Counted from the stretch's first letter, positions 4,346-52,115 are shown. The stretch: DNA of 64,000 bases from an uncultured Mycoplasmatota bacterium (GCA_900542735.1 UQOS01000002.1:7545-71544), one strand, 5' to 3'. Notes: a model not told the origin generated them from the letters alone. Numbers and translations are program-made.

Positions 4346-6088
4346 TTAGGCATCTACTTTAGTTTGTTTGATTTCTTTTCTTGTTTTTAATTTCTTCTTT
4401 TTTGTTTTAGGTTTCATTTCAGAGTCATTTCCACTATTATCTTTTTTCTTTTTTACTACTTTTTTCATAAATAACATGATACTAATACCAAATACCATTC
4501 CTAATAGAAAAATAAGTAAATAAACTATAATATTCATAATAGAAAATTCTTGTACTCTCAATGTATAAATATCGTATTCTCCACTAGCTGAAGTTACTAG
4601 TAAATAAATTGTTTTTCCTTCTTCTATTATATTTACTGTACTATTTTCATCTTCTAAAACTACTTTTTCTATTTTAAAATTTTTATATCTTTTATAAGAA
4701 TATTCTCTTTTAGTAGAATCTATTTTACCAACTAAACTACCATTTTTAAATTTTATTTCTTTAATATTTGTATTAGAAGAAAGATTTGTTTCTAAAAGAT
4801 TATTTCCTCTTGCTACAATTACTGTATATTCTTTAATAGAATTATCTTCTGCTGTTACTAAAATTTTATAATTATTATTTCCTACATTTAATTTATTTGG
4901 TCCTTCTATTTTAACTTTAGCATATTTAATATCTTCTACTACTGTTTCAAATTGAATACTATCTACTTCATAAGGAAGATAAACAATATACTTGGTTTGT
5001 TCTTTATTAAAAGATGGACTTAAAGTACCAGTTGATACTGTTAAACTAGATAAATTATTATTTGTAGATAACACTTTATTAGGATCTTTTCCACGAGTTG
5101 CATGAATAGTATAGGTCTTTGTACTTCCATTTTCTGCTGTTACTACTATTTTTACATCTGTTGTTTCTTCAGCAGTTAAATTGGTATTCGTAATACTGAT
5201 TTTAGCTTTCTCATCTTCTGTTTTAGCATTTACTTTTAAATTAGAAATACTATAAGGAACTGATACACTATAACTATCTGTATTTGCATTAAATTTAGGA
5301 CTTAATTCTGCTCCATTTACGCTTAAACTAGCTAGTTTATTATTACCACTACGATTATCTTTTCTATTAACAGTAATTGCATATGTTTTTTTATCACCAC
5401 TAGGTGCAGTTACTACAATATAAAACTGATTATTTCCATAATTTAAATTCTTAGTACCTGTTCCTGTAATACTAGCATCACTATCTTCTGCTGATGCTGA
5501 TATATTAATAGAAGTAATATTATTTTCTACTGTTACTTGGTAACTTGTGTTATTTTTATTAAAATTGATATTAGCATTACTTACTGATAAACTACTTAAG
5601 TTATTATTCGTACTAGGTGGTGTAGTTATCGTAATTGTTTTACTACTTCCACTAATATTAACAGGAGATGCACTAGCATCAGGTTGACTACTTCCTGTAT
5701 AAGAAACATTAGCAGTACCAGTTTCTTTAGCACGGAAAGTAAGCCTCATAATATTTTGATAACCTTTAATAGTATTAGCACCAAATCCACCAAACTTAGT
5801 TCCTACTAAATCAATATTAAAGGGAGCTAAAGAAGTCGCACCAATTAATTCTAATTTATCACTAGAATAATTTAAGTTACCACCAAAAGCAGCTAATCCA
5901 CCATCATCAGTTGTACCTGATACACTTCCAATATATAAAGTAATATCAATGGTATTTCCTACATAAACACTACTATTTCCATTAAAACCTGTAGTAGCAT
6001 TTCCTAGTGCGTATATTTTAAAAGGACATAAAAAAAGAAAGAAGGAAAGAAGAAAAAAGGTTATTTTTTTTATATTCAATCTTTTCAT
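4346..6088 (-). CDS. membrane-anchored cohesin-domain scaffold protein with four cadherin-like modules (580 aa)
   Basis: Start moved to the ATG at 6088 (MKRLNIKK), 7 nt after a GGAGG RBS. Order: signal peptide, cohesin-like module, 4 cadherin-like beta-sandwich repeats, C-terminal TM (IVYLLIFLLGMVFGISIMLF), Lys-rich tail. Confidence 0.85.
   Translation of the reverse strand: MKRLNIKKITFFLLSFFLFLCPFKIYALGNATTGFNGNSSVYVGNTIDITLYIGSVSGTTDDGGLAAFGGNLNYSSDKLELIGATSLAPFNIDLVGTKFGGFGANTIKGYQNIMRLTFRAKETGTANVSYTGSSQPDASASPVNISGSSKTITITTPPSTNNNLSSLSVSNANINFNKNNTSYQVTVENNITSINISASAEDSDASITGTGTKNLNYGNNQFYIVVTAPSGDKKTYAITVNRKDNRSGNNKLASLSVNGAELSPKFNANTDSYSVSVPYSISNLKVNAKTEDEKAKISITNTNLTAEETTDVKIVVTAENGSTKTYTIHATRGKDPNKVLSTNNNLSSLTVSTGTLSPSFNKEQTKYIVYLPYEVDSIQFETVVEDIKYAKVKIEGPNKLNVGNNNYKILVTAEDNSIKEYTVIVARGNNLLETNLSSNTNIKEIKFKNGSLVGKIDSTKREYSYKRYKNFKIEKVVLEDENSTVNIIEEGKTIYLLVTSASGEYDIYTLRVQEFSIMNIIVYLLIFLLGMVFGISIMLFMKKVVKKKKDNSGNDSEMKPKTKKKKLKTRKEIKQTKVDA
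5627..6007 (-). other. cohesin-like module of the 580-aa protein
   Basis: GNATTGFNGNSSVYVGNTIDITLYIG...GGNLNYSSDKLELIGAT...MRLTFRAKETGTANVSY. The pattern fits the cohesin fold and is more divergent than the other two copies. Confidence 0.55.
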
Positions 6089-6092
6089 CTTC

Positions 6093-8276
6093 TTACCTCC
6101 AATCGTCATTATCATTTTCTTGATACTTTCTTTGTTCCTCTTCTTTTTTCATTAACTCTTTTTTCTTTTGATTTAGTGCATCTTGCTGTAATAACATTTT
6201 TAACTTTGATGGATCTTTGGTTCTAGTTGCTTCATGAATAGCGTCTATAATTTCTTTTTTGGTAACTGTTTCATCATATGGATCATATGGTGTATTTTCA
6301 TTTTCTTCATATCTAGCTTCATAAGTATTGGTACTACCTAATCTTTTTAATTCACTATCTTTTGTAGTTACTTCACTGTTTTGATTATAGTTACCATGAA
6401 TAACGTCATCATCTGATGTATTTTTAGATCCAAAATTAAATTCTGGTTTTACTTCAATAATTGGAGTTACTCTTTTATCATTATCGTCATCATCATCTTT
6501 TTTCTTACGGAATAATAAGAATAAGATAAGTAATAAAAGTAAACTAATAATACCAGCGATAATACCAAATTGTAGTGGAGTTAAACCTAAAATTTTAGAT
6601 TCTTCTTTCTCTTTTTCTACATCAATTGAATAATATTTCGTAAAACCATCTTTATCAGTAACTTTTATTAATACAGTATTATGACCAACTTTTAAGTTTT
6701 CATTACCAATAATTTCTACTTTACTACTACTATCACTTGGTGTAGCTTTAATATCTAATTTATTAGTATTTCCATCTACTTTAGCAGTATATTCTTGATT
6801 ATTAGGATCAAACTTAGGAGTAATACTTACATTATCTATCGTAATATCTTTTAAATCTGTCTTACTAGAAGCTGTACTACGAGTAACATTTAAAGAATAA
6901 ATTCTAACACTACCATCTTCTGCTGTTACTTTAATTTCTACTGTATTTACACTACCAACTTTAAAGTTTTCATTACCAGTAATTTCTACTTTAGCTTTTT
7001 CATTGCTTGTAATGTAACTTAAATCTAATTTTTCTACTTCATAAGGTACTTTAATATTATAACTATTTACATTTTTATTAAAACCTGGTTCCATTTCATG
7101 TGATGATTTAACTGTTAAACTTTTTAAATAGTTATCATTAGACTTAGTATCTGTTTTCGTATCATTATTAGATGAAGCTCTTTCTACATTTACTATATAA
7201 GTATTTACTGTACCATCTTCGGCTGTTACTTTAATCGTAACGGTATTATTTCCCTCTTTCCAGTTTTTATTACCAGATATTACTACTTTAGCTTTGTTAT
7301 TATTAGGAATTGCTGTAACATCTAAACTTGTGATATTATTTTTAACTTTCATAGAATAATTGTTTACATTACTCTTAAAAGTTGGTGTTAAGGTATAACC
7401 ACTAATATCTAATTTCTTTAGTGTTGCATCATTTGATTTTTTTACTTCTTCTTGTTTTTCTTTTTCAATTTTTACAGTATATGTTTTAACACTTCCATCT
7501 TCTGCTGTTACTTTAATAGTAGCAACTGTTTCATTACCTGTTAAAGTAATATTTCCAAGTCCTGATACTGTAGCTTTACTATGATTAGTAGCACCTTCTA
7601 ATTTTATCGTTGTTGCTGTAGAAGGAACTGTTACTGTATATGATGTTGTATTTGCTTTAAAGCTAGGTGATAAAGTATAACCACTAGCTGATAAACTTTT
7701 TAAAGTGGCATCACTACTCTTAGTAGAAGGAGTAGGACTAGTTGATGGTGATGGACTAGTTGTAGGTGTTGGACTAGTTGTAGGAATAGGATTGGCGTCT
7801 GTAATTGTAATACTTTTTGGTGTTACAGTAGTAGTTAATTTACTAGATACATCACTTAATTTAGCATTCGTTAAAGTTACTTGAGTGGTACCTACTTTCT
7901 TTGCTTTAAAGACAAAAGTAAATACTTCAGTCTTACTTGTAATACCACTAGATAAAGTAGTATCTAATCCCGCAATTATATAATTAGCATTTGTATTAAT
8001 TTGAAAAGTATAGGGACTAGTTGTACCTGTTCCTGATACATATTCTAGGTAATTACTATCAAAAGATAAATTACCACCTACGCTAACGATACCACCATCT
8101 GTTGAATTATCACCATTTACATACATTTTAATGGTAATTTTATCATTTAGGCTAACCGTTGAATTACCACTAAATCCAACGGTAGCACTACTTGCTTTTA
8201 CTGGTACTAGATAAGTTAATAGTGAAAAACCAACTACTAATGCCATTAATAAATTTAAACTTTTTATTCTTTTCAT
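6093..8276 (-). CDS. membrane-anchored cohesin-domain scaffold protein with a Pro/Thr/Ser linker, four cadherin-like modules and a long charged cytoplasmic tail (727 aa)
   Basis: AGGAGG RBS before the ATG at 8276. Order: signal peptide, cohesin-like module, linker PIPTTSPTPTTSPSPSTSPTPST, 4 cadherin-like repeats, TM (FGIIAGIISLLLLLILFLLF), then a 138-aa acidic/basic tail. Confidence 0.88.
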   Translation of the reverse strand: MKRIKSLNLLMALVVGFSLLTYLVPVKASSATVGFSGNSTVSLNDKITIKMYVNGDNSTDGGIVSVGGNLSFDSNYLEYVSGTGTTSPYTFQINTNANYIIAGLDTTLSSGITSKTEVFTFVFKAKKVGTTQVTLTNAKLSDVSSKLTTTVTPKSITITDANPIPTTSPTPTTSPSPSTSPTPSTKSSDATLKSLSASGYTLSPSFKANTTSYTVTVPSTATTIKLEGATNHSKATVSGLGNITLTGNETVATIKVTAEDGSVKTYTVKIEKEKQEEVKKSNDATLKKLDISGYTLTPTFKSNVNNYSMKVKNNITSLDVTAIPNNNKAKVVISGNKNWKEGNNTVTIKVTAEDGTVNTYIVNVERASSNNDTKTDTKSNDNYLKSLTVKSSHEMEPGFNKNVNSYNIKVPYEVEKLDLSYITSNEKAKVEITGNENFKVGSVNTVEIKVTAEDGSVRIYSLNVTRSTASSKTDLKDITIDNVSITPKFDPNNQEYTAKVDGNTNKLDIKATPSDSSSKVEIIGNENLKVGHNTVLIKVTDKDGFTKYYSIDVEKEKEESKILGLTPLQFGIIAGIISLLLLLILFLLFRKKKDDDDDNDKRVTPIIEVKPEFNFGSKNTSDDDVIHGNYNQNSEVTTKDSELKRLGSTNTYEARYEENENTPYDPYDETVTKKEIIDAIHEATRTKDPSKLKMLLQQDALNQKKKELMKKEEEQRKYQENDNDDWR
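7800..8192 (-). other. cohesin-like module of the 727-aa protein
   Basis: ATVGFSGNSTVSLNDKITIKMYVNG..GGIVSVGGNLSFDSNYLEYVSGTG..PYTFQIN..NYIIAGLD..FTFVFKAKKVGTTQVTLTNAKL. Close paralogue of the module at 30601-30993. Confidence 0.6.
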
Positions 8277-8286: not shown

Positions 8287-11200
8287 CTAATGCAATGAAA
8301 TTCTTCCTAAATAATGATTTAAAATCATTACTGAATCAAATAAGTCAATATCAGTATCATCATTGACATAAGCTGCTTCTTGATAAGCTCCTGTTAATAA
8401 TGTTTTCGATAAATAGTGATTTAAAATTTTAACAGCATCGAATAAATCAATTTCACCATCACCTGAAGTATCTCCTTTGATGACTACATATTTACGATCT
8501 TTTTCTACCCCATCAATTACTAGTTTAACAATCATACCAGTAGCTAGTTTTTCATCATCATTTATTTTTCTTGTTTCAGTTGCATCCCAAATTTCTAAAT
8601 ACTCATTTTCATTATCTAATTGATTTTTCATTTCTTGTCCAGTAGTATTTAATTTTACAGTTCTAATATAATTATTCATAATCGTATGTCCAAATTGAAT
8701 AGAAGTAATAGTGCTAGCAGGATCAGCTTCTTTATTTACATTAATTTTATAAGTTAATACTGTACCATTTTCACTAGTTACTAAAATAATTACTTCTGTA
8801 TTTCCACTCATTAATGGTGATAGTGTTAAAGTATGTGGTGAAGTATAAGTAGTTCCATTCATTTTCATAATAGCTGTGTTATCTTCTGTAATTGCCGTAA
8901 TATCAATTGATGATACGGTTCTATCTACATTAACGGTATATAGGAATGTATTTTTATTAAATGTAAGGTTACCTTCACTTACTAAAATATTACTTAAGTA
9001 AGCATTAGTTGATGCTTCTTTTTCATAAGTAATTTTATAGTTTTTAATTGTAGTTCCATCTTCTGCTGTTACTTGAACAGTAATGGCAGATTTTCCTTCT
9101 ATCTTAGGAATATTTACAGTATTACTTGACTGTTTTACCCCATTTACTAAATAACTTATTTTAGAAGTTCCCATGTTAGGAGTTGCATGAATAGTAAGTG
9201 TTTCTAAACTAAATGGTATTTTTCCAATAGAATATTCTAAAGAGTCCATACTAAACTTTTTATCAAGTTCATAACCTTCTACATTTAAACTACTTAAGTT
9301 AGCATCTGTTGATGCTTTTCTTTCTAGTCTTTTAATAATAACGATATAAGTTCTAGTAGAATTATCTTGGGCTTTTACGATAATACTTACTGGATTATTT
9401 CCTACTACTAAGTTATCTATCGTAACTGTTTTTGGAGTAAATGATACATTACCATTTATATCAACGGTTGCATTACTATCTTCTGTTTCCATAGAAAGAT
9501 CAATACTAGTTACTTCATTTTCTACTGTTAAATTATAATTTTCTTTGGTTTTAATAAAATCAATTGAACCAATTGATGGTGCTAAGCTAATTAAATAATT
9601 ATTACTTGATGGAATTATATTATAAGAAATATTATATGTTTTATTAGTGATACCATCAGCAGCTGTTACTACTACTGTAATTACTTTATTACCCATTACA
9701 TTTGGTATACTAACAATATTACTATCTTGTTTAATACCGTCTACATAGTATTCTATTGTAGATAAATTATTATTAGGAGTTGCATTTATTTTTAATTGAG
9801 TAGTTCCATATGGTAAATCTCCTAATGAATAATCTAGTGTTGTTTGAACAAAAGCTTTATCAAGAGGGTATCCTGTTACTGATAAATTACTTAATGTTGC
9901 ATCTTTACTTAAGGCTTCAACTACTGTAAAGTGATAATTTAAAATCGTACCGTCTTCTGCTGTTAAAGTTAGAGTTACTTTATTATCAGATAAATGATAG
10001 TTACCATTTCCAGATACAGTAGTTTTATTAATGGTTGGAACTCCTTCAATAGAAAAATCATTGCTTCCATAAGGAACTGTTATTGTATATTCATATTTAT
10101 TTGATACAAAAATTGGTGATAATGTTGCTCCTGTTAGTTTAACTTCTTTTAAAGAAGCATCACTTGATTTTGGTCTAATTACTTTAATCGTATAAGTTTT
10201 TGTTGTTTTACCATCTTCAGCAGTTACAGTTACAGTATAATAATTATCTTGTGTTGTTGATAAAGTAATTTCTTCTTGTTTTGCTATAGTGGCATTACTA
10301 TCTTCTAAGATAGCTGTTACTTCAGTTGGAGATAATTTTTCTTTAGTAGCTTCTACTGTTACTTCATAATCATATATTTCACTATTAAAAGTTGGAACTA
10401 AAGCATAACCAGTTACTGCTAAAATACTTAAGTTAGCATTATTATTTTTATTTCTAGTAATATTTATTTTATAAGTTTTAATAGTACCATTTTGAGCTGT
10501 TACAGCTATTTCAAATGTATTTAATCCAGTAGTTAATCCTTTAGTACCAAGACCACTAATCGTTGCATCAGAATCTACTGTAGTAGCACCTATTTCAATA
10601 CTTGTTTTTGTATATACTACATTATCTAAAGTATATTCTAAAGTATCTTTATTAAAATCTTTTACAGGATTACCATCTACTGTTAATGTTAATAAGTCAT
10701 TATTTTCTTTTTTAGCCCTTACTACATTAATTACATAGTTTTGTCTAGCACCTGATTCACTTTCTACAGTAATCGTAATCGTATTATTACCAACATTTAA
10801 ATCATGATTTCCAGTACCTGATAAAATCTTAGCACGACTATCAGATAAGGTAGCTTCGATATCAATAGAATCAATACTTCCACCTACATTTACGGTATAA
10901 GCAGTAGTATTTTGATTAAATTCAGGTGATAAATTTCCTTCACTTACAGTAATAGAAGATAATGTATTATCACTAGATTTCGTTCTAGATATATTTAATT
11001 TATAAGTTTTAGTTACTGTTAAATCTTCACTTACTACCACTACTTCTATTTCTTTTGTACTTTCTGTCATAGTATAATGACCAATTCCAGATGTGATACT
11101 AGCATGAGGCTCAGTAGTAATTGCACTTACATCAAATTCAGTTGTTTCAACAGGAACAGTTACATTATATTCTAAAGTATCTTTATTAAAACTTGGATTA

Positions 11201-14200
11201 AATGAACCATTTGTTACTGTTAATTTATCTAAAGTAGCGATATTTGATTTTTCCTTAGTAACAGCTAAGATATAATTTTTAATTGTGCCATCTTCTGCAG
11301 TTACTGTAATAATTACTTCATTTATAGTTGTTGTAACTAAAGGAGTATTTGTAAATGATACCGTAGCTTTTTTATCAAGATTAGTAATTGGATCATTTAC
11401 TTCTACACTTAAATTACTACTATTTGCTTCAGTTATATTATTAGGAACAGTTACTTCATACTTCTTAGATGAAGTGTTATAAGTAGCTTTTTTACCTGCT
11501 AAAGTTATATTTTTAATACTTGTATCATTATTAAGATTACGTTTTACATTAATAATATAATCATGTGTAATACTAGTATCATGTGCAATAACTGTTATAG
11601 TTATCTTATTATTACCAGTATTAATTCTAACTAAACCATCACCTGTTTTGGTAGCTAAGTTATCATTAGGAGTAGCTACTATATTTAACTGATGAGTATT
11701 ATATGGTAAGTCTGTTAAAGTGTAATTATCTTTTGTACTAGTAAAATCTGATATCGTTACCCCATTAATCGTTAAATCTTTTAAAGTAATGTCTTGTCTA
11801 TGACTTCTAGTAATATAAATGGTATAAGTTTTTCTAGTATCATCTTCTGATTTAACTGTTACTTCAATTTTATTTCTAGTATCAAATTCTAATGGGAATG
11901 GATTAGATAAATCAGTGGTAATTTCTGCTTTATCAGTATCTTCTACTGTAGCACTTACTACTACTTCACTAGTTGTTCCTGGAACAGTTAATTCATAAGT
12001 TTGAGTTAATGGATTAAAGTTTTTAACAGTAGTTCCATTTACTGTTAAATCAGCTAAGTTATTATTAGAAGATTTTTGTCTAATAACATTTACAGTATAA
12101 GCAGTAATTGTTCCATCTTCTGCTGTTACTGTTAAGATAATTGTTTTAGTTGATTCACTAGCAGGCATTTGATAAGTTGTACCATTTACTGGTGAAACAC
12201 TAGCAGTATCACTAATTTCAGCACTTAATTGAAATTGTAAAGTGTTAACTGGAACTTCAATACGACAGTTATTACTACTATCTACTAAACAGTACCTAGA
12301 ATCGTCATCACCTATCGTTAGATTAATTCTAGATACTCTAGAATCATTAGCCTTAGTTCTAGTTACTTTAATAGAATATTCTTGTTCGGTACCATCTTCA
12401 GCTGTTACTGTAAAACGATAATCATTTACCATAGTAGTAACTAGTTGAAGTGTTTGATTTTTAGTTATTTTAGCATCAGATGAAGTTGTAAATAAAACAT
12501 CATTAGGTGTTAAAACAGTTACACTATTTGGTACAGTTACTTCATAAATTCCAACATCAGTATTTACTGCTTCAATACCAGCAACAGTTAAATTTGAAAT
12601 TGAAACATCACTATTACGAGCACGTTTAATATTTAATTTATATACTTTTTCTGTACCATTTTGAGCTGTTACTGTAATTAATATTTCATTGTTTCCAGTT
12701 TTTAAAGTAACATTACCATCACCTTTTACAGTAGCATAAGAATTAGTTTTAGAAGTTTCAATATTAATATCTTTTTTATTAAATTCAACACTATCTAATG
12801 TATATTCAAAAGTATCTTTATTGAAGTTTTTAACACTGATGCTATCTACTTTAATATCATCTAAAGTAGCTATATCATATTCTTTTCTAGTAACATTAAT
12901 GATATAAGAAGAAGTTGTTTTATTTTCAGCTTCTACTATTACTTCTACTTGATTAGCACCAAACTTTAAGTTTGTATTTCCGGTAATAGATTTAATATTT
13001 CCATATAAAGAATTTGGAACAGCATCTACATTAATTTCAGTTATATCAGCATCAACAGTAGCAGTATATGTTCTAGTACTTTGACTAAATAATGGTGATA
13101 AAGTTCCGTGATCAATTGTTAAAGATTTTAAACTACTATCAGCTGATTTTGATCTAATTAGATTAATCGTATAAGTATTTATAGTACCATCTTCAGCAGT
13201 TACAACAACTGATACATCAGTAGTTGAGATTGGAAAAGTCTCAGTTTTGGTATTTGGACTAGCTGTTGTGGTACCAGTAGCATTATCATAAATAGCTACA
13301 CTTGCTTTACCAGTATCTTTTACTGTAGCAGTAATAGTAACATCAGTTACAGTAGCATCATAATTATAAGAATAAGTTCCATTAAAGCTTTCTTGAAATG
13401 TTGGTGACATAGTTGCTTGAGGAGTAGATGTAATTGTTAAATTAGATAATTTGTTTTCATTAGATAGACGATAAACTTTTAGTTTATAATTTCTAGTTGT
13501 GTTATCTTGTGCAGTTACTTTTATCGTAAACTCATTAGCACCTACCTTTAAATTAACCGTTCCAAGTCCACTAATAGTAGCTTTTCCTGTATCATCTACT
13601 AAACCATTTAGAAGTAATGAGGTTTTATTATTTGCTACTTGTCCTAAATCATATTCTTGAACAGTTTTATTAAAATTATTTACTAAATTACCATCAACTG
13701 TTAATGTTTTTAAGTAGCTATTATTACTTGCTGCTTCACGATTTATTGTTAAATTATAATTTTGAGTAGTACAGGTATTACCTGGAACACTAGCATATTT
13801 ACTAAGACAGTTTTCGGCTTTTACTACTAAAGTTTTATTATTTGATAAATTTCCAGAATTAGGTAGATTCCAATTTCCTAATCCACTATCAACATAAGCA
13901 TTTTTATGATTCGTAGTAGCACTTACTGATGTTGAATTAATAGCATAAGGAATTGTCGTTTGATAAGTATAAGTTCCACTAATCATATTTCCAAAACTAA
14001 TACTGTTCGTTAAATTAATTGCTGATAATGTTGCATCATTTGATAATCTATAAACATTAATGGTATAAGTTTCTGTATTACCATAGGCAGCTGTTACTGT
14101 TAGATTAAAGGTATTACTTCCTACATTTAAGTTCTTTTTACCAATACCACCTGATAAGACAGATGCTTGACTATGATTAGCTGTTGCTGATAAATTAATA

Positions 14201-15006
14201 AAACTAATATTATTAGGAACAATATAATCATAAGTTTTTTGACTACTGCCTGCTACAAATGAAGGAATAGACTGATAAGTAGTGCTGCTATTAGTTACAG
14301 TTAAAGTTCCAAGTGTTGCATCATGTGATATTTCCTCACCTGGTACCACAAAAGAAATGTCATCCGTTTCATAATTAAGTTTCTTTCCATTTCCATCACT
14401 AATTGTGGTTCTACCATTGGTAGTATCAAATTTTAATTCTGCTGTTCCACTAGGTGCTGAATCATTTATTTTCATAAAAAAGTAACCAATTTCAGTATCA
14501 CCATTCAAAGAATAATGGTATTGTGAACCTTCCTTTGCATATACAATGATTTGACTAGTACTCGTATCTAAATTTACATAATTTGACCAACTTGCTGGTT
14601 TCCTACTAGTTCCTTTAGGAAGGTCATTTATATTATTGTAAGCTGCAAAAGAATCATCACTATAATAAACTGGACTCCAAATTGATGAATCATATGTAAT
14701 AGCTGAGTTAATTCCAATAACTTCTGATACATCACCCATTTTATAGCTAGCTACAATTATCACAACAGTACCCGGTTGAATTTCATCATTATTATTTTTA
14801 ATATAGGAATCAAGTGTTCCACTTTTATAATCTTCATAACAATTATCTAAATTGACATCATTATCTGAATCATTATATACAGTTGGATCACATACTACAG
14901 CCTTTAAATTTAACCCATGAGATAATGCATAAGCATTGGTATCAAATGTTAATACAAACATTAAAATAAACCCAAAAATTATTTTTTTCATAACTCTACT
15001 ATTCAT
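8287..15006 (-). CDS. giant secreted cadherin-like repeat protein (2239 aa) with a cohesin-like N-terminal module and a C-terminal dockerin
   Basis: Start moved to the ATG at 15006 (MNSRVMKKIIFGF), 5 nt after AGGAAG. Signal peptide, about 20 modules of 85-95 aa ending Y.I.V.R (counted by eye), then an X-like segment and a dockerin. Only a 10-nt gap to the next gene. Confidence 0.9.
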   Translation of the reverse strand: MNSRVMKKIIFGFILMFVLTFDTNAYALSHGLNLKAVVCDPTVYNDSDNDVNLDNCYEDYKSGTLDSYIKNNNDEIQPGTVVIIVASYKMGDVSEVIGINSAITYDSSIWSPVYYSDDSFAAYNNINDLPKGTSRKPASWSNYVNLDTSTSQIIVYAKEGSQYHYSLNGDTEIGYFFMKINDSAPSGTAELKFDTTNGRTTISDGNGKKLNYETDDISFVVPGEEISHDATLGTLTVTNSSTTYQSIPSFVAGSSQKTYDYIVPNNISFINLSATANHSQASVLSGGIGKKNLNVGSNTFNLTVTAAYGNTETYTINVYRLSNDATLSAINLTNSISFGNMISGTYTYQTTIPYAINSTSVSATTNHKNAYVDSGLGNWNLPNSGNLSNNKTLVVKAENCLSKYASVPGNTCTTQNYNLTINREAASNNSYLKTLTVDGNLVNNFNKTVQEYDLGQVANNKTSLLLNGLVDDTGKATISGLGTVNLKVGANEFTIKVTAQDNTTRNYKLKVYRLSNENKLSNLTITSTPQATMSPTFQESFNGTYSYNYDATVTDVTITATVKDTGKASVAIYDNATGTTTASPNTKTETFPISTTDVSVVVTAEDGTINTYTINLIRSKSADSSLKSLTIDHGTLSPLFSQSTRTYTATVDADITEINVDAVPNSLYGNIKSITGNTNLKFGANQVEVIVEAENKTTSSYIINVTRKEYDIATLDDIKVDSISVKNFNKDTFEYTLDSVEFNKKDINIETSKTNSYATVKGDGNVTLKTGNNEILITVTAQNGTEKVYKLNIKRARNSDVSISNLTVAGIEAVNTDVGIYEVTVPNSVTVLTPNDVLFTTSSDAKITKNQTLQLVTTMVNDYRFTVTAEDGTEQEYSIKVTRTKANDSRVSRINLTIGDDDSRYCLVDSSNNCRIEVPVNTLQFQLSAEISDTASVSPVNGTTYQMPASESTKTIILTVTAEDGTITAYTVNVIRQKSSNNNLADLTVNGTTVKNFNPLTQTYELTVPGTTSEVVVSATVEDTDKAEITTDLSNPFPLEFDTRNKIEVTVKSEDDTRKTYTIYITRSHRQDITLKDLTINGVTISDFTSTKDNYTLTDLPYNTHQLNIVATPNDNLATKTGDGLVRINTGNNKITITVIAHDTSITHDYIINVKRNLNNDTSIKNITLAGKKATYNTSSKKYEVTVPNNITEANSSNLSVEVNDPITNLDKKATVSFTNTPLVTTTINEVIITVTAEDGTIKNYILAVTKEKSNIATLDKLTVTNGSFNPSFNKDTLEYNVTVPVETTEFDVSAITTEPHASITSGIGHYTMTESTKEIEVVVVSEDLTVTKTYKLNISRTKSSDNTLSSITVSEGNLSPEFNQNTTAYTVNVGGSIDSIDIEATLSDSRAKILSGTGNHDLNVGNNTITITVESESGARQNYVINVVRAKKENNDLLTLTVDGNPVKDFNKDTLEYTLDNVVYTKTSIEIGATTVDSDATISGLGTKGLTTGLNTFEIAVTAQNGTIKTYKINITRNKNNNANLSILAVTGYALVPTFNSEIYDYEVTVEATKEKLSPTEVTAILEDSNATIAKQEEITLSTTQDNYYTVTVTAEDGKTTKTYTIKVIRPKSSDASLKEVKLTGATLSPIFVSNKYEYTITVPYGSNDFSIEGVPTINKTTVSGNGNYHLSDNKVTLTLTAEDGTILNYHFTVVEALSKDATLSNLSVTGYPLDKAFVQTTLDYSLGDLPYGTTQLKINATPNNNLSTIEYYVDGIKQDSNIVSIPNVMGNKVITVVVTAADGITNKTYNISYNIIPSSNNYLISLAPSIGSIDFIKTKENYNLTVENEVTSIDLSMETEDSNATVDINGNVSFTPKTVTIDNLVVGNNPVSIIVKAQDNSTRTYIVIIKRLERKASTDANLSSLNVEGYELDKKFSMDSLEYSIGKIPFSLETLTIHATPNMGTSKISYLVNGVKQSSNTVNIPKIEGKSAITVQVTAEDGTTIKNYKITYEKEASTNAYLSNILVSEGNLTFNKNTFLYTVNVDRTVSSIDITAITEDNTAIMKMNGTTYTSPHTLTLSPLMSGNTEVIILVTSENGTVLTYKINVNKEADPASTITSIQFGHTIMNNYIRTVKLNTTGQEMKNQLDNENEYLEIWDATETRKINDDEKLATGMIVKLVIDGVEKDRKYVVIKGDTSGDGEIDLFDAVKILNHYLSKTLLTGAYQEAAYVNDDTDIDLFDSVMILNHYLGRISLH
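8290..8480 (-). other. dockerin (two F-hand segments) of the 2239-aa protein
   Basis: GDTSGDGEIDLFDAVKILNHYL ... NDDTDIDLFDSVMILNHYL. The D.S.D.E....D calcium-loop spacing appears in segment 1; segment 2 is degenerate. Confidence 0.65.
14338..14916 (-). other. cohesin-like N-terminal module of the 2239-aa protein (tentative)
   Basis: About 190 aa after the signal peptide: PGTVVIIVASYKMGDVSEVIGINSAITYDSSIW ... TEIGYFFMKINDSAPSGTAELKF. This parallels the cohesin strand pattern but is longer than a canonical cohesin. Confidence 0.35.
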
Positions 15007-15035
15007 GTAACTTCCTACTTTCTTATTCTTATATA

Positions 15036-15044
15036 AGTATACCA
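15036..15044 (-). promoter_or_regulatory. possible extended -10 promoter (TGgTATACT) ahead of the 2239-aa gene
   Basis: Minus strand reads TTGGTATACT about 30 nt upstream of the ATG at 15006. No clear -35 element. Confidence 0.3.
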
Positions 15045-15091
15045 ATTTTTTCGATATATTTCTACAAAAATTAATAAATGTTTTTATTTTC

Positions 15092-15137
15092 TAAAGATAT
15101 AAAGTGCAAACACTAAATTTTGCACCTTATATCTTTA
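15092..15137 (-). other. 19-bp RNA hairpin between the two giant genes
   Basis: Arms 15092-15110 and 15119-15137 with an 8-nt loop. Fully paired in the minus-strand transcript (one G:U), but A:C mismatched on the plus strand. A second small hairpin GCGAA-TTT-TTCGC sits at 15139-15151. No T-run follows. Confidence 0.6.
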
Positions 15138-15162
15138 GGCGAAAAATTCGCTTAAAGATTTT

Positions 15163-18100
15163 TTATTTATCTTCTAGTTGTTCATATAAGTCAGTATTTA
15201 AAGAAGAATTTAATCTTAAAATATAGTTTTGCATTTTTGTTACATCAGCTACTGTAACATAATTATCAACATCAATATCAGCAGCAACAAACTCAATTTT
15301 ATCTAATTTGCTTAATCTCAATATTGAATTTTCTGCTAATGTTACATCTGCTACTGTAATATAACCATCACCATCAATATCACCTTTCACTACTAAATTA
15401 AGTTGATCATAGGTAATATTATTAATTACTAGTTTTACTATATATTTAGTCTTTACATTCTCTTCATTTTCTACCACATTTGTTTCTGTACTTTCATACA
15501 CTTTCAAGTTTTCTCTTTCATTTTTTAAATTACTTAAGAAATCATCTACTATTGTATTTGGTTCCATTCCTGTTATGTAATTATTATCTTCATCATCACG
15601 ATTAATATAATAAGTATCACTTTGTATTACTGGATTAATTACATGAACGGTAACTGTTTTCGTTAATGATTTATTTCTAGTAGAAGTTATAGTAATCGTT
15701 GTATCTCCTACTGTTAATGGTGTAATTAAACCTGTATCTGATACAGTAAGAATAGATTTATTATTTACTGTATAAGTCATACCGTTATAATCAGTATTTT
15801 CAGGATTATATTTTATGTCAATTTGATAATCATTGCCAACTGGTACATTAATTTCTAAATCTGTATCAAAAGAAATAATATCTGTTTTCTTATATACTTC
15901 AATATTTACTGATTCTTGTGTAATACCATCTTCAGCAATAGAAGTAATTGTAATGATATTTTTACCAGCAAATAAAGTTGTTACACCATTACCAACTACT
16001 AATGTATCTTTTGAATTAGTAGTAACATCAAAGGAAATATTATTAACATCACCTTCTACTTCTATAGTGTAAGATTTAGTATCTGATGTAAAACTAGGAT
16101 TAAGACTACCAACACTTGGTTTAATATTAGTAATTAAAGCATCGTGACTAGCTTCTCTTACAATAGTAACTTCATAAGTATTTACTAAACCACTTTGAGA
16201 AGTAACAGTAATATATTTAGTTACTGTTCCAACGGTTAATGGATAAGTTTCTAATCCGTTAACGGTAGCATTTTCTGATACAGTTCCTGATAATGTTACA
16301 TATTTAGTACCAACTGGTACATTTAAAGTATAACTATTTACATCTTTATCAAACTTAGGAGTAATATTACCTGTACTACTTTCTAGAGTTAATAATTTAT
16401 TTTCATCACTATTTTCTCTAGTAACAACAAGTTTATATACTCTTTCTGCTTTGGAAATACTAACTACTTTAATATAAATTGTGTTCTCTCCTGGCGTTAA
16501 ATTAATAGTTGTAACTCCTGCTGTTTCTTTATAATCTGTATCTTTTTTAATATAAACGGTACTTGTTGATAACTCTGGTGTTGCTTTTAATTCAATGGAA
16601 GCTATATTATTTGCTACTGTTAAAGTATAATTTTGAATTGTTTTATCAAACTCTGGTGTAATATCATGATTCATTACAGATAAAACATTTAAATAAGTAT
16701 TACTTGCTTCTTGTCTAATAGCATCAATTGTATAAGTAGTATCTTCTCCATTATAAGATACTTTGACAGTAATGATATTATGACCAACTTCTAAGTTATC
16801 ATTTCCATAAATATCTACTACAGCATCAGGATTATGAACTTTATAAGTAACAGTAGCACTTTCATATTCATTTGGAATATTTACAATATAGTTAAGAGTA
16901 TTTGGATTAAAATCTGGTGTTAAAGCACCCTCTAATACACTTAAATCTTCTAGTAGTGTTTGTTCTAATTCATTTTCTTTTCTAGTTACTGTTATTGTAT
17001 AAGTTTTAATTGTTCCATCTTCTGCTGTTACCATAATCTGAATTTTATTTTTTCCTTCTACAAGATTATAATTACCATTTCCAGATACAGTAGCTTTATC
17101 TGATTCACTTTTACCAGTTACATTAATAGAATCAATATAATTTTCAAGTTCTACTGTATATTCTAAAGTATCTTTATCAAAGTTAGGTACTAATTCACCA
17201 TTATTAATCGTTAAACTTTCTAGATTATTATCAGATTCTTTTTTCTTAGTTACTACTACAGTATATACTTTTGTAGTTCCATCTTGGGCTACTACAGTAA
17301 GTTTTACTGTTAAATCTTCACCAGTTAACTGATAAATACCATTTCCAGTTATTTTAGCAGTAGTATCTTCTCTAATACCAATTATTTGAATAGTATTTAT
17401 ATTACTTTCTACATGATAAATATAATTATATTTTTCTTTATCAAAAGTAAAATCCTTTTCTGGGAAAGTAACGATATCACTTAAGTAAGCATTACTTGAT
17501 GCTTTTTTAGTAACAATAATAGTATATTCTAAACTTGTTTTACCATCTTGAGCAAGAGTCGTAATAGTAATGGTATTTTCACCTATTTTTAAGTTTTTAT
17601 TACCACTTATTGTATAAGTTGCTTTTTCATCCATCATAGTTACTGTTTCTGTTAACTTAGTTACAGTATTCTCAACTTCCATTGTATAAGCATTTTTATT
17701 TTTATCAAATACAGGAGCTAATGTACCATAATCAAATGATAAATTTTTAATACGAGCTTCATTTGGTCCAGCACGATAAATATCTAATTGATAGTTTCTA
17801 ACACTACCCTCATAGTTGGTAACTCTGATAACAAAAGAGTTTTTACCAGCATCTACATTTAACATAATCTTAGGATCATCTACTTTCATATCTACTTTTG
17901 TTTTCGTAGTAGAACCTAATTTATATACTTCAACAGTTGAATACATTTTTTCTTCTGCTTGTAAGTGTAGATTAACCCTTTTTGTATCTTTTAAAACTTC
18001 AGCTGTATAATTCATAATACCAATATTAAAGACTGGTTCTAATGTAGCTTCATCAATATACATATTAATTAAGCGATTACTTGCTGTAGGTTTTGGAAGT

Positions 18101-21100
18101 TTAGTAGCATGAATAATATAGGTTTTAATATCTCCATTTTCTGCTGTTACTATTACTTCAATATCTTTGGTAATACCAATTTCTAAATCTGTATTATTTC
18201 TTATTTCAACAGTTGCATCTTTAGAATTTGTTTCATAAATAACAGTAGCACTATCATATTCATATGGAATATCAACATTATATTCTAAAATATCTTTATT
18301 AAAGCTTGGATCTATTAATCCTTCTGCTACTTGCAATGATTTTAACGAATTATCACTACATTTTTTTCTATTAACATGAATTATATAATCTCTACTATTT
18401 TCACCATAACTTACAGTAATTACTATATCATTATTACCTGTATTTAATTGATATTCACCTAATCCATTAATATCATTTAATGTTTCTTTTAAAGTAGCAT
18501 CAACGATAACACTATCAATTTCATAATCAACCGAAACATTATATTCTAAAGTATCTGGATCAAATACTGGATCTAAATCATAAATAGTATCATCATGACT
18601 TACAGTTAAACTGTTTAATCCAAATTCAAATTCTCTATTTATAGTTATATTATAAGTATTTACTAATCCACTTTCACTAGTTACCGTAATTGGAATTACA
18701 TTAATTCCATAATCTAAAATATAACTACCATTTCCCACTATTGTTTGCATTTTTTGACCTTTAATAGTTTTAATGTTTATTTCACTGATATCTTTTGAAA
18801 CATTTACAGTATAATCATTTACTTCATTATTAAAGTCTGGTGTTAATGGATAAATAGTTTCTATATCATTTTTCATAGAAGAAACAGTAATACCATTTAA
18901 TAAATTATTATCACTTGCACTCCTATTAGCATGAATTTTATAAGTTTTACCACGTGTTTTATCAGCAGATAATACTACAACATTTACGATATTTTCACCA
19001 GTTACAAAGTTAGAATTACCAGTAATATATACTAATTGGTCTTCTGCTTCTTTAGTATAAATAATATCTAATTGGTTAACGGTACTATCAATATTAATGT
19101 AGTAGTCAACGGTATTTTTAACAAACTCTGGTGATAATTCATAACCTGTTACTTTCAAATTAGCTAAGTTAACATTATCACTTTGTTTTCTTATAATATT
19201 TAAAGTATATGTAGATGGATCACCTATTTCTGGTGTTACTATAATTTGGAAAGTATTTAAACCAGGTGTTAAATTAAATTCACCATTTCCAAATACTGTA
19301 GCATGAGTAGTATTAACAGCAGTACCCTCAATTTTAACGGTACTAATTTCACTATCTACTTCTAATACATAATCAAATTTATACTTATTGAAAACTTGTA
19401 AGAAATCACCGGTATCACCTGATGAAACAGTTAAACTAGCAAGTAGATTACTATATTTTTCATTACGATAAGCATGAATGATATAGTCTTTTTCGTTACA
19501 ACCATATCTAGTTTTAACAGTAGTAGAACAGCTTTCTGATTTAGTATGAACTATAATATCATTACGTCCAAAGTATAATACTTTAGCACCTTTTATTTCT
19601 ATTTGTTGATTATCATTTTTCTTTTCAACATCAAGTTCATATTTACCACTTTCTATTGCATTAAATTCTACGTTGTATTCATATAAATTTTCATCAAAAT
19701 CTGTAATCTCATATTCTGGAGTAATAAAGGAAACACCTAGAATATTAGGATCACTATTTGCTTCTCTATATACTGTTAAAGTATAATCAAAAGTTTCATT
19801 TAATGAATTTTTAACTCTTATGATAATAGTATTTTCACCAACACTTAAATTACTATTTCCAATTATTTCATAAGTTTGTAGATTGTTTTTAGGTGTTATT
19901 ACTAAATCATCTAAACTAGTAATTTCATTAGGAATATAGATTTCATAGTTAGTAGTATCTTCATTAAATACTTTATCAAAAGTACATATACCACTACAGT
20001 CATCTTCTTTTTGGAAATTAGCTTCAATATTAGCTAATTTTAACTCTCTTGTTTTACTTCTTACCAAGTTAACAGTATAAATAGCTACATCACCATTTTC
20101 AGCTGTTACCATAAATTGATACTGATTATCATAAGTTAATTTTTGAGGAAGCATTACATTGTGAACAGCATATTCATTACTTAATGTAATAGAAGTAAGA
20201 GTAGCATTTGTATCTGTATCAAAGATATCATAACTAAACTCTTTATCACTGTTTGGTTTTATCTCAACACCATCTACTACAATTTTATCAACATTATTAT
20301 TAGTAGATAACTCTGGTAATACAGAAATGTGATAATACTTCTGAACGACGCCATCACCTGCTGTTACTGTAATCGTATAGATATTACTTGTTTTATCAAA
20401 ATCAATATCTAGTTTATTATCTAAAGTAATACTAGCATTTTTATCTGCTAAACTGTAAATTATTTCATCTCTAGTTAATGTTTTTTTCGTTCTTGGAACT
20501 CTAATTGTATATTCAGTTTCTTCTGGATCATAAGTTTCTTCAAATGGGTAATTTTTTACTGATAAACTACTAAGTTGTGCATTAACTGAATCACATCTAG
20601 TAATTTCTATTGTATAAGTTTTTTCTGTCTTATCTTCAGCTCTTACTACTATTTCAATCGTATTAAGTCCATACTCTAGATTAAATGGTTTACTTAAATC
20701 TGTTACAACAGTAGCTTTTGTATCAGCTAAAACTGCCGTTATCATTACTTGATTCATAGTACCAATTACGGTTTTCTCATAACTTAATTTAGTTGATGAA
20801 AAATTAGGTAATGAAACATAGTTTACTTGTAGGTCCATTAAATCATTATTACTAGATTCACTACGAATAATACGAACAGTATAAGTATCAGTAGTATCAT
20901 CTTCAGCTGTTACTGTTAAAGAAATATCTTTATTATATTCTGTAGCTAATAGAGTATGTTTAGATGGATTAGCTGGATTAACACTAGCCATATCAGGAAG
21001 TGTTGCTTCTAAAGTAAAATCAGAAGTATTACTTGGTACTTCAATAGTACATAATTTAGAAGTTGGGTCCATATTACAACTAAATTTATTATCAGATACT

Positions 21101-29592: not shown

Positions 29593-29618
29593 ACTATCAC
29601 CATTTTACTCTATAAATA

Positions 29619-29647
29619 AGTATACTATATTTGTCTTATTTTGTCAT
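29619..29647 (-). promoter_or_regulatory. candidate sigma-A promoter of the 4809-aa gene
   Basis: Minus strand has ATGACA (29647-29642), a 17-nt spacer and TATACT (29624-19). An A8 tract lies just upstream, and the promoter follows the preceding terminator. Confidence 0.45.
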
Positions 29648-29680
29648 TAAAATGGAACTTTTTTTTCACTTTTATACGCA

Positions 29681-29706
29681 TAAAAAGTCTGCTATATTTA
29701 GCAGAC
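29681..29706 (-). terminator. rho-independent terminator after the 151-aa gene
   Basis: Minus strand reads GTCTGCT-AAATAT-AGCAGAC followed by TTTTTA. Confidence 0.7.
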
Positions 29707-29716
29707 CATCTATTTC

Positions 29717-30172
29717 TTATTTTGTTTCTTCTACTTCAAATCCACACACTAGATTTGTATCAATACGGTAATCCTTTTTACCATAAGGCTCTTTAGGATA
29801 AATAATAACCATCGAATTTGTTTTATCACATTCTTGATTTGTTTTACTATTTACAAATTTCTTGATAATTTCTTCTGACTCATCTTTTTTATAACGAGCT
29901 AAATTATCTAAACTTACTTTAATACCAATATCAGTATATTTTTCTAAGAATGTTTTCTTTTCTTCATCAGTTTTCCCTATTTGATTATAGTAAAAATCTT
30001 CATAAAATGATATCCCTAGTTCTTTTAATTCTTTTGTTAGTTTTTGAGACTCATTTTTTGAGTGATTATTAAATATCAGAAATAAACTGATAATTACTAT
30101 TAATAGTAATATAATACCTCCTATTATATAATAATGTTTTTTATTTAGTTTTTTTAAATTTATTTTTTTCAT
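29717..30172 (-). CDS. small N-terminally anchored hypothetical protein
   Basis: 151 aa. TM helix YYIIGGIILLLIVIISLFLIF, then a soluble domain with two Cys (QECDK...LVCGF). Lies between the small cohesin gene and the giant gene. Confidence 0.75.
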   Translation of the reverse strand: MKKINLKKLNKKHYYIIGGIILLLIVIISLFLIFNNHSKNESQKLTKELKELGISFYEDFYYNQIGKTDEEKKTFLEKYTDIGIKVSLDNLARYKKDESEEIIKKFVNSKTNQECDKTNSMVIIYPKEPYGKKDYRIDTNLVCGFEVEETK

Positions 30173-31241: not shown

Positions 31242-31315
31242 GGGTCTATAGCCAAGTGGTAAGGCGTGGGACTGCAACTCCCTGATCGTTGGTTCAAATC
31301 CGACTAGGCCCTCCA
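31242..31315 (+). tRNA. tRNA-Cys (GCA)
   Basis: Acceptor GGGTCTA/TAGGCCC, D-loop with GG, anticodon loop CTGCAAC, T-arm GTTGG-TTCAAAT-CCGAC, encoded CCA. Confidence 0.85.
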
Positions 31316-31322
31316 CTTTTAT

Positions 31323-39706: not shown

Positions 39707-39750
39707 ATAAAAAAACACTACTCAAATATGAGTAATGTTAAACTCAATTT

Positions 39751-52003: not shown

Positions 52004-52006
52004 ATA

Positions 52007-52083: not shown

Positions 52084-52115
52084 ATGACCCATTTAACCGG
52101 TCAAATATTAAAAAT

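Follow-up and report, generated by a model that had tools for sequence, protein, structure and literature searches.

Related systems

The closest described counterparts of the assembly analysed here are the adaptor scaffoldins of cellulosomes, such as ScaC and ScaA of Ruminococcus flavefaciens and ScaB of Acetivibrio cellulolyticus. Each of these proteins pairs a cohesin with a dockerin of another specificity; they carry an X module ahead of the anchoring dockerin and belong to multi-tier hierarchies in which an anchoring cohesin is bridged to a further dockerin-bearing component. The 2239-aa protein of the present locus, C2239, would follow the same plan, with a cohesin and a dockerin that may also differ in specificity. 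However, enzymes, CBMs, and a multi-cohesin scaffoldin are all absent from the locus, and the cargo would be another giant repeat protein, D4809. In C2239, ~20 Cadherin-like repeats separate cohesin and dockerin, and the adaptor cohesin belongs to a new divergent subtype. Anchoring would be through a C-terminal TM helix, in contrast to the SLH domains or sortase of the cellulosomal systems.

Cohesin-dockerin modules outside cellulose degradation are also found in a gut Firmicute, Clostridium perfringens, in the NagJ cohesin and NagH dockerin (PDB 2jh2, 2ozn, 2w1n). The nearest sequence relative of the A/B/F-type cohesins of the present locus is the NagJ cohesin. In C. perfringens, such modules link secreted glycoside hydrolases or toxins in pairs, whereas the role proposed here is a serial connection of membrane anchors with non-catalytic giant fibres. 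A third parallel is the CttA X-dockerin with the ScaE cohesin of R. flavefaciens, where a C-terminal X-dockerin dyad on a non-enzymatic adhesion protein is held by a cell-anchored cohesin and is expected to bear mechanical load. Unlike the present proteins, CttA is a small cellulose-binding protein and ScaE is attached by sortase; the pair has no second tier. Finally, Gram-positive bacteria have giant repeat adhesins (Ebh, SasG, and Cadherin-like/Big repeat proteins) that use tandem Ig-like or Cadherin-like rods to project a tip domain far out. In contrast to the single polypeptides of the Ebh/SasG type, the rod proposed here would be split over three polypeptides with non-covalent joints and exchangeable junction alleles.

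Organization of the locus

The window, the whole 64,000-nucleotide stretch of DNA analysed, contains a cluster of six genes, all on the (-) strand, encoding A589, B727, C2239, D4809, E151, and F250. The cluster appears to specify a non-enzymatic cell-surface cohesin-dockerin assembly of an uncultured low-GC bacterium of Bacilli from the human gut. Genomes of this kind carry the label 'Tenericutes' in some MAG records. Pfam identified only Cadherin-like, ALK_LTK_GRD, Big_2, cohesin, and dockerin domains in the six proteins, with one cohesin per cohesin-bearing protein; it found no enzymes, CBMs, or multi-cohesin scaffoldin among them. Cellulosomes and amylosomes are defined by dockerin-bearing glycoside hydrolases and a multi-cohesin scaffoldin with a CBM, and the cluster has neither. 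The genes flanking it are unrelated.

C2239 (8287..15006) consists of a signal peptide, a divergent N-terminal cohesin, ~19-20 Cadherin-like repeats (Pfam, 19 matches, E 1e-131), an X module, and a dockerin, and is proposed to be a stalk or adaptor. Its ATG at 15006 has a GGAAG-type ribosome-binding site just upstream, which makes the 2239-aa protein the likely product. D4809 (15163..29592), proposed to form the distal fibre and its adhesive end, comprises by Pfam and translation a signal peptide, four glycine-rich ALK_LTK_GRD domains, 31 Cadherin-like repeats, a Big_2 domain, an X module, and a dockerin. B727 (6093..8276) has a signal peptide, a cohesin (7797-8192), four Cadherin-like repeats, a TM helix seen in the translation, and a cytoplasmic tail, and is the proposed membrane anchor for the C2239 dockerin. 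A589 (4346..6115), a second membrane cohesin, has a signal peptide, a divergent cohesin (5621-6004), 3-4 Cadherin-like repeats, and a TM helix. F250 (30313..31065) combines a signal peptide, a cohesin (30598-30993), and a K/E-rich tail, without a TM helix. It is accompanied in related loci by E151 (29717..30172), a small protein with an N-terminal TM helix.

The synteny of the locus is directly observed. The order from D-like gene to C-like gene to membrane cohesin(s) is kept in 39 loci from genomes and 79 from metagenomes. Both dockerin classes persist with it in the related loci, which number more than 100 and come from MAGs of uncultured gut Bacilli and from metagenomes. The architecture of C2239 is likewise kept in more than 100 loci, and every complete C-like protein of the related loci has the N-terminal cohesin-like module.

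Dockerins and their preceding modules

A dockerin comprises two tandem ~22-residue segments, each a Ca-binding loop of the form D-x-[DN]-x-D-G-x-[IV]-x-x-x-D followed by a helix. Both giants end in such a duplication, reading GDTSGDGEIDLFDAVKILNHYL / VNDDTDIDLFDSVMILNHYL in C2239 and GDIDGDGYITVADVTLAENSIL / ADIDVDNYVTVADVTKMQNYIL in D4809. In the second loop of C2239, Y replaces D at position 1. Against Pfam Dockerin_1 (PF00404; cut-off 22.9 bits), the D4809 tail scores above the cut-off (E 5e-7, 30.2 bits) and the C2239 tail below it (E 1.3e-3, 19.3 bits); dockerins are the best matches of both tails among PDB sequences (E 1e-6 for D4809, with 2ccl_B at E 1.2e-6; E 1.7e-3 for C2239). The C2239 dockerin (8290..8475), with two near-identical helices, represents the class 'IDLFDAVKILNHYL', whereas that of D4809 (15166..15393) belongs to the class 'ITVADVT..N.IL' and has an SLN tail. 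An earlier note had drawn attention to the differing helices and to a conserved segment of ~80 aa ahead of both dockerins, and comparison across loci bears it out on each: the helices of the two classes remain distinct throughout the related loci, and the segment is the X module, present in all of them (alignment A2 for the C2239 module). The X module of C2239, ~78 aa, lies at 8476..8709 and that of D4809 at 15394..15636, and the two X-dockerin tails are homologous (33% identical over 123 aa, E 1e-20). No sequence match was found between these X modules and the solved X modules in the PDB.

Cohesins of the cluster

Three of the cohesins can be assigned to the family (PF00963) by sequence. The B727 module scores above the Pfam cut-off (26.5 bits), that of A589 gives E 0.0097, and a profile of the A/B/F-type cohesins matches the entire NagJ cohesin of C. 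perfringens (E 1e-7). The modules of B727 and F250 are 47% identical (E 2e-41), and the A589 cohesin is 34% and 29% identical to them, respectively. The division anticipated in the earlier note, with the 727-aa and 250-aa proteins as a close pair and a 580-aa protein apart, recurs as the same two clusters across loci. The 580-aa protein is A589, its length there having been counted from an internal start.

The fourth module, at the N-terminus of C2239 (residues 26-229; 14320..14931), is far more divergent. It scores 14.2 bits against Pfam Cohesin, below the cut-off of 24.1 (E 0.053), and hhalign aligns it with the locus's own cohesins at a probability of only 10%. The profile of its family has cohesins as its top four PDB matches (best E 0.004). 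An AF2 model built on 17 homologues (pLDDT 92, pTM 0.88) predicts the nine-stranded jelly-roll beta-sandwich of the cohesin type. In a Foldseek search of the PDB, the best 50 matches of this model are all cohesins, of types I, II, and III as well as non-cellulosomal (E down to 3.5e-9; target TM 0.74-0.79). A lack of structural similarity to cohesins, which by the earlier note would have spoken against C2239 as an adaptor, is contradicted by the model, and the predicted fold encloses the cohesin-like region of ~190 aa proposed there at 14338-14916. Judged by this fold, the module is a genuine, very divergent cohesin and a remote family member by sequence. It is a new cohesin subtype with an inserted helix that is pinned by two invariant cysteines, C14 and C31 (alignment A1).

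Strain variation and covariation

A direct comparison of strains locates the variation of the locus. In two species, the X-dockerin of D4809, the intergenic region, and the signal peptide and N-terminal cohesin of C2239 are exchanged as one unit (14300..15636 in the window), and everything outside is 99-100% identical, including both membrane cohesins. Between the window and a contig of the same species (L053), nucleotide identity is 97-100% outside the block and drops to 44-76% inside. The edges of the cassette fall on module borders, at 15631, the start of the D4809 X module and the left edge of the cassette, and at about 14300, the end of the N-terminal cohesin. Within the window's own species, contigs show 100% identity in the B727 cohesin and, for C2239, in the final Cadherin repeat, the X module, and the dockerin, and their A589 and B727 genes are 98.7% identical at the nucleotide level; in contrast, identity falls to 64% in the D4809 X module, 52% in its dockerin, and 42% in the N-terminal cohesin of C2239. 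The identical block varies in the second species. The allele classes are common to both species, and in either allele class the dockerin keeps its matching cohesin class in both species. On this comparison of sequences, the junction between the D4809 dockerin and the C2239 cohesin appears to be a matched lock-and-key cassette with alternative alleles within a species.

Covariation was assessed over 18 loci in mirror-tree fashion, by partial Mantel tests and multiple regression on distance matrices. The D4809 dockerin covaries with the N-terminal cohesin (partial Mantel r=0.43, p=4e-4) and not with the first membrane cohesin (r=0.08, p=0.24), whereas the C2239 dockerin covaries with the latter (r=0.63, p=2e-4). 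Multiple regression returns the same reciprocal pairings, with beta 0.54 (p=0.0013) for the D4809 dockerin on the N-terminal cohesin, 0.62 (p=0.009) for the C2239 dockerin on the membrane cohesin, and cross terms of zero or below. Bootstrap support for these mirror-tree differences is only 90-96%. On the DNA, the D4809 dockerin adjoins the N-terminal cohesin of C2239, and the C2239 dockerin adjoins the B727 cohesin; linkage alone therefore adds to both the covariation and the joint swap, and the X modules, used as controls, lessen this confound and do not remove it. Because the dockerin and the N-terminal cohesin of C2239 vary independently between strains and do not covary, their specificities may differ, as an adaptor would require.

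Proposed order of assembly

These observations favour a serial arrangement, which the earlier note had suggested as an order from membrane cohesin to the 2239-aa adaptor to the 4809-aa fibre. With a probability of about 0.72, we read the locus as encoding a three-tier stack of membrane cohesin, C2239 stalk, and D4809 fibre, with a matched allele cassette at the junction. Four independent lines of comparative evidence support this order over the alternatives: the cassette alleles, the distance-matrix regression, loci with a single anchor, and natural variants.

In such a stack, the C-termini of all subunits would face the cell. B727, and possibly A589, would sit in the membrane via the C-terminal TM helix, the B727 cohesin being held out on its four Cadherin-like repeats. 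This B727 cohesin would take up the X-dockerin at the C-terminus of C2239 (class IDLFDAV..NHYL), and C2239 would form a stalk of ~20 repeats with the second, very divergent cohesin at its distal N-terminus. This cohesin would receive the X-dockerin of D4809 (class ITVADVT), whose 31 repeats would extend to a tip of four glycine-rich ALK/LTK-type domains, probably the adhesive or ligand-binding end. The outcome would be a three-tier fibre, stacked non-covalently. A beta-sandwich repeat spans ~4 nm, from which the stacked fibre is estimated at a few hundred nanometres. The binding pairs, the stoichiometry, this length, and the adhesive function of the fibre are what we infer from the comparisons. 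Besides the linkage and the bootstrap values, further points count against the serial reading. It assigns no partner or role to the cohesins of A589 and F250, and the dyads of both giants resemble the case of R. flavefaciens, in which two X-dockerins share one anchoring cohesin. In class III loci (L010, L013, L016, L017), moreover, the N-terminal cohesin is present although no D-like giant lies next to it, indicating that it can have other partners.

Alternatively, the giants could stand side by side, C2239 on B727 and D4809 on A589, with the N-terminal cohesin recruiting a dockerin protein encoded elsewhere. The window holds exactly two divergent TM-anchored cohesins together with two dockerin classes, and both giants bear X-dockerin dyads, which in known cellulosomes (type II/III X-Doc) typically bind anchoring cohesins. 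The class III loci, in which the N-terminal cohesin has no D-like gene beside it, also speak for this arrangement. However, many loci encode both dockerin classes and only a single membrane cohesin gene, and another (L015) has both classes with two membrane cohesins that are 93% identical. Whether a locus has an A-like cohesin is not linked to its type of D4809 dockerin: L014 has such a cohesin and a very different dockerin, and L015 lacks it and has a window-like dockerin. Between strains, this dockerin shifts to 52% identity while both membrane cohesins stay identical, and it does not covary with the first of them (partial r 0.08, beta -0.26). Finally, the gene directly after the giant in L049 encodes a membrane anchor in which an N-type cohesin is joined to three Cadherin-like repeats and a TM segment. 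Taken together, parallel anchoring is unlikely.

More improbable still is an N-terminal module that folds as a cohesin and binds no dockerin, serving perhaps as a carbohydrate-binding or capping beta-sandwich. The giants would then be independent adhesins on membrane cohesins, and the cassette would reflect antigenic or phage-driven variation of exposed ends. The marginal sequence likeness of the module to bona fide cohesins is compatible with such a role, as is the jelly-roll fold, which is common to some CBMs, and exposed tips of surface proteins are often hypervariable. Nevertheless, all 50 best fold matches are cohesins and not CBMs, and the variable block includes the D4809 X-dockerin, which under this explanation would be buried at the base with its supposed cohesin partners unchanged. 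Furthermore, mini-adaptor proteins of 366-378 aa, encoded between giant and stalk gene in L046, L047, L050, and L051, consist only of an N-type cohesin, an X module, and a D-type dockerin, a combination that is sensible only if the module is a connector.

Head-to-tail polymerisation of C2239, for which its one cohesin and one dockerin are the minimal need, with D4809 bound directly to the membrane cohesins, is hardly credible, since the covariation of this dockerin and cohesin is absent once other modules are included (beta -0.03), the dockerin is still 100% identical between strains in which the cohesin is 42% identical, such a polymer would be left without an anchor, and the mini-adaptors bear D-type and not C-type X-dockerins.

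Biological implications

A further, tentative suggestion, which we consider rather doubtful, is that the junction, formed by the X-dockerin of the tip fibre and the cohesin of the stalk, is a polymorphic specificity cassette, with two or more lock-and-key allele classes that persist within a species and recur in others. Were this the case, gut Bacilli would possess a plug-and-play, non-covalently stacked surface fibre and would set, strain by strain, which tip fibre can be mounted on which stalk. The cassette may then be under balancing or diversifying selection, possibly from phage, host immunity, or kin-specific assembly.

Gene cluster and module assignment

The cluster comprises six genes arranged head-to-tail on the minus strand (4346-31065), whose proteins are named here by a letter and their length in amino acids. 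F250 (30313-31065) consists of a signal peptide, a cohesin and a K/E-rich tail and has no TM helix, and E151 (29717-30172) is a small protein with a TM helix at its N-terminus. For D4809 (15163-29592), Pfam reports four ALK_LTK_GRD glycine-rich domains, 31 Cadherin-like repeats, Big_2 and Dockerin_1; C2239 (8287-15006) carries 19 Cadherin-like repeats. B727 (6093-8276) and A589 (4346-6115) share one architecture, in which a signal peptide and an N-terminal cohesin are followed by 3-4 Cadherin-like repeats and a C-terminal TM helix.

Pfam searches with whole proteins returned zero cohesins and a sole dockerin, that of D4809, slightly under the cut-off; modules were therefore scanned one by one. 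Separate tails matched Dockerin_1 with E-values of 5e-7 (D4809) and 1.3e-3 (C2239), and dockerins ranked first for both tails in a search of PDB sequences. Each dockerin contains a pair of nearly identical helices, a feature that permits a dual binding mode in known systems. As separate modules, the cohesins of B727 (26.5 bits, exceeding the cut-off) and A589 (E 0.0097) matched Pfam Cohesin. A search of the PDB with the single B727 sequence found no cohesin, and a profile of 24 A/B/F-type cohesins matched the NagJ cohesin of Clostridium perfringens over its full length (E 1e-7). In iterated HMM searches for cohesins, strong N-terminal matches alone were retained; the fourth iteration drifted to Cadherin-like repeats.

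These comparisons bear out several claims of an earlier note on this DNA. The helix residues by which it distinguished the two dockerins are present in the C2239 and D4809 sequences. The split it described among the cohesins, with a close pair and a divergent member, is reflected in identities of 47% between B727 and F250 and of 34% and 29% between A589 and, respectively, B727 and F250. The segment said to precede both dockerins corresponds to a putative X module of ~80 aa, and the two X-dockerin tails are 33% identical over 123 aa (E 1e-20). The X-dockerins occupy residues 2100-2239 of C2239 and 4653-4809 of D4809; the cohesins lie at residues 38-165 of A589, 29-160 of B727 and 25-156 of F250.

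The genes around the cluster encode rubrerythrin, a collagen-like protein, tRNAs, LysM and CotZ and are unrelated to it. The closest relatives of the window DNA, which has a GC content of 27%, are MAGs of uncultured gut Bacilli (some labelled 'Tenericutes') and human-gut metagenome contigs. GC rises from ~0.27 to 0.35-0.37 over the four ALK_LTK_GRD domains of D4809 (24000-30000), owing to the codon composition of glycine-rich domains and not to foreign DNA. Two short inverted repeats in the D4809-C2239 intergenic region (15010-15160), tctttaagcg...cgcctaaaga and gtgcaaa...tttgcac, may act as a partial terminator or attenuator between the giant genes. Offset blastn matches suggest a tandem repeat of ~135 nt at 432-805. 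The tRNA genes comprise a 12-gene array and seven others elsewhere (51927-52977, 31242-31396, 39631-39826), with Cys and Gly immediately upstream of F250. A collagen-repeat protein beside the cluster (33879-34688, plus strand; Pfam Collagen E 6e-9) and a 409-aa secreted or TM protein (1092-2321, minus strand) that has no Pfam match, together with the nearby CotZ and LysM genes, suggest that the organism forms spores.

A divergent cohesin at the N-terminus of C2239

The N-terminal module of C2239 (residues 26-229) is difficult to identify by sequence. Pfam Cohesin reached only E 0.053, over profile positions 11-135 of 139; pairwise comparison with the cluster's other modules gave no significant match; and a single-sequence PDB search gave nothing. 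Nor did a word-indexed search through 5.8 billion proteins return anything; it missed even the window's own protein. This blank is not evidence of an orphan, since an exhaustive search of 1.84 billion representatives recovered 20 relatives. The module lies directly behind the signal peptide in all 20. Most are large Cadherin-like proteins with an X-dockerin at the end, and four, of 362-378 aa, consist of the module, an X module and a dockerin and nothing else. An alignment of 17 sequences has no conserved stretch of 7-10 columns. It contains two invariant cysteines, C14 and C31 of the module, which correspond to residues ~39 and 56 of C2239 (window 14830-14890).

Profile and structural comparisons nonetheless place the module among the cohesins. 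The four best matches of the family profile to PDB sequences were cohesins (top E 0.004). An AF2 model from the single sequence was discarded (pLDDT 54), and the model from the 17-sequence alignment reached a pLDDT of 92 and a pTM of 0.88. The top 50 Foldseek matches of that model in the PDB were all cohesins, with E-values from 3.5e-9 and target-normalised TM scores of 0.74-0.79. As judged from the predicted fold, the module is a cohesin, in agreement with the cohesin-like N-terminus that the earlier note had proposed for this protein. It differs from canonical cohesins in that strands 1 and 2 are separated by an additional loop and helix (model residues 15-55). The cysteine pair lies in or flanks this insertion and probably forms a disulfide. 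Because profile-profile alignment with the A/B/F cohesin family was weak (hhalign E 0.003, probability 10%), homology to these cohesins rests on fold rather than sequence. Such weak similarity fits a different binding specificity.

Proposed assembly and its conservation

In the proposed assembly, the C-terminus of every part would face the cell. A cohesin would be displayed by the membrane anchor B727 and perhaps also by A589; that of B727 would take the X-dockerin of C2239, whose distal N-terminal cohesin would in turn receive the X-dockerin of D4809. The outermost tip would then consist of the four N-terminal glycine-rich domains of D4809. Some 55 beta-sandwich modules in series would add up to an estimated fibre length of a few hundred nanometres, and the domain types point to a putative adhesive function. 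Self-polymerisation of C2239 was considered and rejected, as was a role of its N-terminal module as a CBM-like cap.

Scanning with an alignment of C-type (C2239-like) X-dockerins yielded related loci from species-representative genomes (39) and metagenomes (79), in which gene order was read with HMMs made from the window's modules. Most sufficiently long loci share one order, in which a D-like gene is followed by a C-like gene and a membrane cohesin, often with a second membrane cohesin. D-like proteins end in Cadherin repeats, an X module and a dockerin, and C-like proteins consist of an N-cohesin, Cadherin repeats, an X module and a dockerin. All complete C-like proteins have the cohesin-like N-terminal module, and the cysteine insertion is missing in some distant ones. 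The dockerin classes separate in every locus, with helices of the form xDxxDAxKxxNH[YI][LI] in the C-type and I[TN]VxD...N.ILGKI.SLN in the D-type. A search for other cargo of D-type X-dockerins found 8 fragments only, too few to show cargo diversity.

Class III loci (L010, L013, L016 and L017) have the order F-E-C-B and retain the N-cohesin with no adjacent D-like giant; the N-cohesin can therefore take other ligands. F250 and E151 co-occur, and in these four loci they lie directly upstream of the C-like gene. Since F250 is B-like and lacks a TM helix, possible roles are those of an assembly factor, a soluble competitor or a cap. Class III loci also encode small cohesin-Big_2-dockerin proteins bearing a third dockerin type. 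In three of them (L010 12943-13857, L013 12642-15458, L016 12848-14719), the A-like membrane cohesin is replaced by proteins of 302-304 aa that combine an A-like cohesin with a Big_2-like domain and a third-class dockerin; next come a dockerin protein of 256-276 aa and a sortase-like ORF with a TLSTC motif. At another locus, L015 (10434-14436), the cohesins of the two membrane proteins are 93% identical, against 31% in the window, which points to an anchor that was recently duplicated or subject to gene conversion.

Comparative evidence for the proposed dockerin-cohesin pairing

The first line of pairing evidence is a matter of counting. In one group of loci, a single membrane cohesin gene stands behind the C-like gene and is followed by unrelated genes. 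These loci and L015 carry both classes of dockerin. Two dockerin specificities would then need two cohesin types, and the N-terminal cohesin is the one further type visible in loci that reach 10 kb on each side.

Covariation points the same way. Pairwise distances across 18 non-redundant loci gave raw correlations of 0.87 for C-dockerin and membrane cohesin, 0.73 for D-dockerin and N-cohesin, and 0.60 for D-dockerin and membrane cohesin. In partial Mantel tests in which the two X modules and the last Cadherin repeat served as controls, the D-dockerin was correlated with the N-cohesin (r=0.43, p=4e-4) and not with the membrane cohesin (r=0.08, p=0.24), and the C-dockerin was correlated more strongly with the membrane cohesin (r=0.63, p=2e-4) than with the N-cohesin (r=0.33). 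Multiple regression gave the same reciprocal pattern, with cross terms <=0. As a caveat, the members of each proposed pair are also DNA neighbours.

Natural variants of the gene order match the predictions of a serial chain. For example, the gene immediately after the 4240-aa D-like giant of L049 encodes a 620-aa protein in which an N-type cohesin is joined to a TM anchor through three Cadherin repeats and an Ig-like domain. At L046 and L047, the D-like and C-like genes are separated by the gene of a 366-aa protein that is composed of an N-type cohesin, an X module and a D-type dockerin, and the C-like protein also begins with an N-type cohesin; two shorter contigs, L050 and L051, hold the upstream and downstream halves of this arrangement, respectively.

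The strongest of the comparative evidence comes from strain alleles. Eight same-species contigs have 100% protein identity in the B cohesin and, within C2239, from the last Cadherin repeat through the X module to the dockerin; they fall into two allele groups. Allele 2 is 64% identical to the window in the D X module, 52% in the D dockerin and 42% in the C N-cohesin. At the nucleotide level, the window and L053, a contig of the same species, are 97-100% identical over 18781-15632 and 64-76% identical over 15631-15182, a stretch that coincides exactly with the final 157 codons of D4809, those of its X module and dockerin. The D4809-C2239 intergenic region is not alignable between the two; identity is 44-64% over the C2239 signal peptide and N-cohesin, 87% at 14308-14219 and 97-100% further on. 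The A and B genes are 98.7% nucleotide-identical. Docking of D4809 on A589 or B727 is hard to reconcile with a D dockerin that diverges as the A and B cohesins stay constant.

A second species (L007 versus L066) shows a matching block with an identical right-hand edge. The allele classes are common to both species (sp0 and sp1): sp0-a2 resembles sp1-a1 (dockerin 81%, cohesin 61%) and sp0-a1 resembles sp1-a2 (dockerin 59%, cohesin 56%), with a backbone identity of 72-77%. The association between dockerin class and cohesin class therefore holds in a replicated two-by-two design. The sharing of alleles of this cassette, made up of the D X-dockerin and the C N-cohesin (window 14300-15636), suggests trans-species polymorphism or its transfer between species.

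Relation to known systems and significance

Cohesin-dockerin pairs are known chiefly as the glue of cellulosomes. As proposed, the cluster would share the logic of adaptor scaffoldins in complex cellulosomes (R. flavefaciens ScaC/ScaA and A. cellulolyticus ScaB) and the anchoring logic of X-dockerins such as CttA:ScaE, a kind of anchor for which high mechanical strength is expected. In contrast to cellulosomes, it has no enzymes, CBM or multi-cohesin scaffoldin and is anchored by a TM helix; lacking enzymes, it was rejected as a cellulosome or amylosome. By sequence, the non-cellulosomal cohesins of C. perfringens are nearest to its A/B/F cohesins. No description of this cohesin-dockerin system was found in the literature.

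The N-terminal module, on its predicted fold, represents a new and very divergent cohesin subtype, and the matched natural cohesin-dockerin allele pairs would be ready-made orthogonal connectors for protein engineering. Because putative specificity alleles of a protein-protein interface segregate here inside species, the evolution of cohesin-dockerin specificity becomes directly testable. To our knowledge, many non-cellulosomal occurrences of cohesins and dockerins have no assigned function. In widespread, uncultured Bacilli of the human and animal gut, this cluster offers a concrete and testable one, in which giant repeat proteins would be stacked serially and non-covalently into a very long surface fibre.
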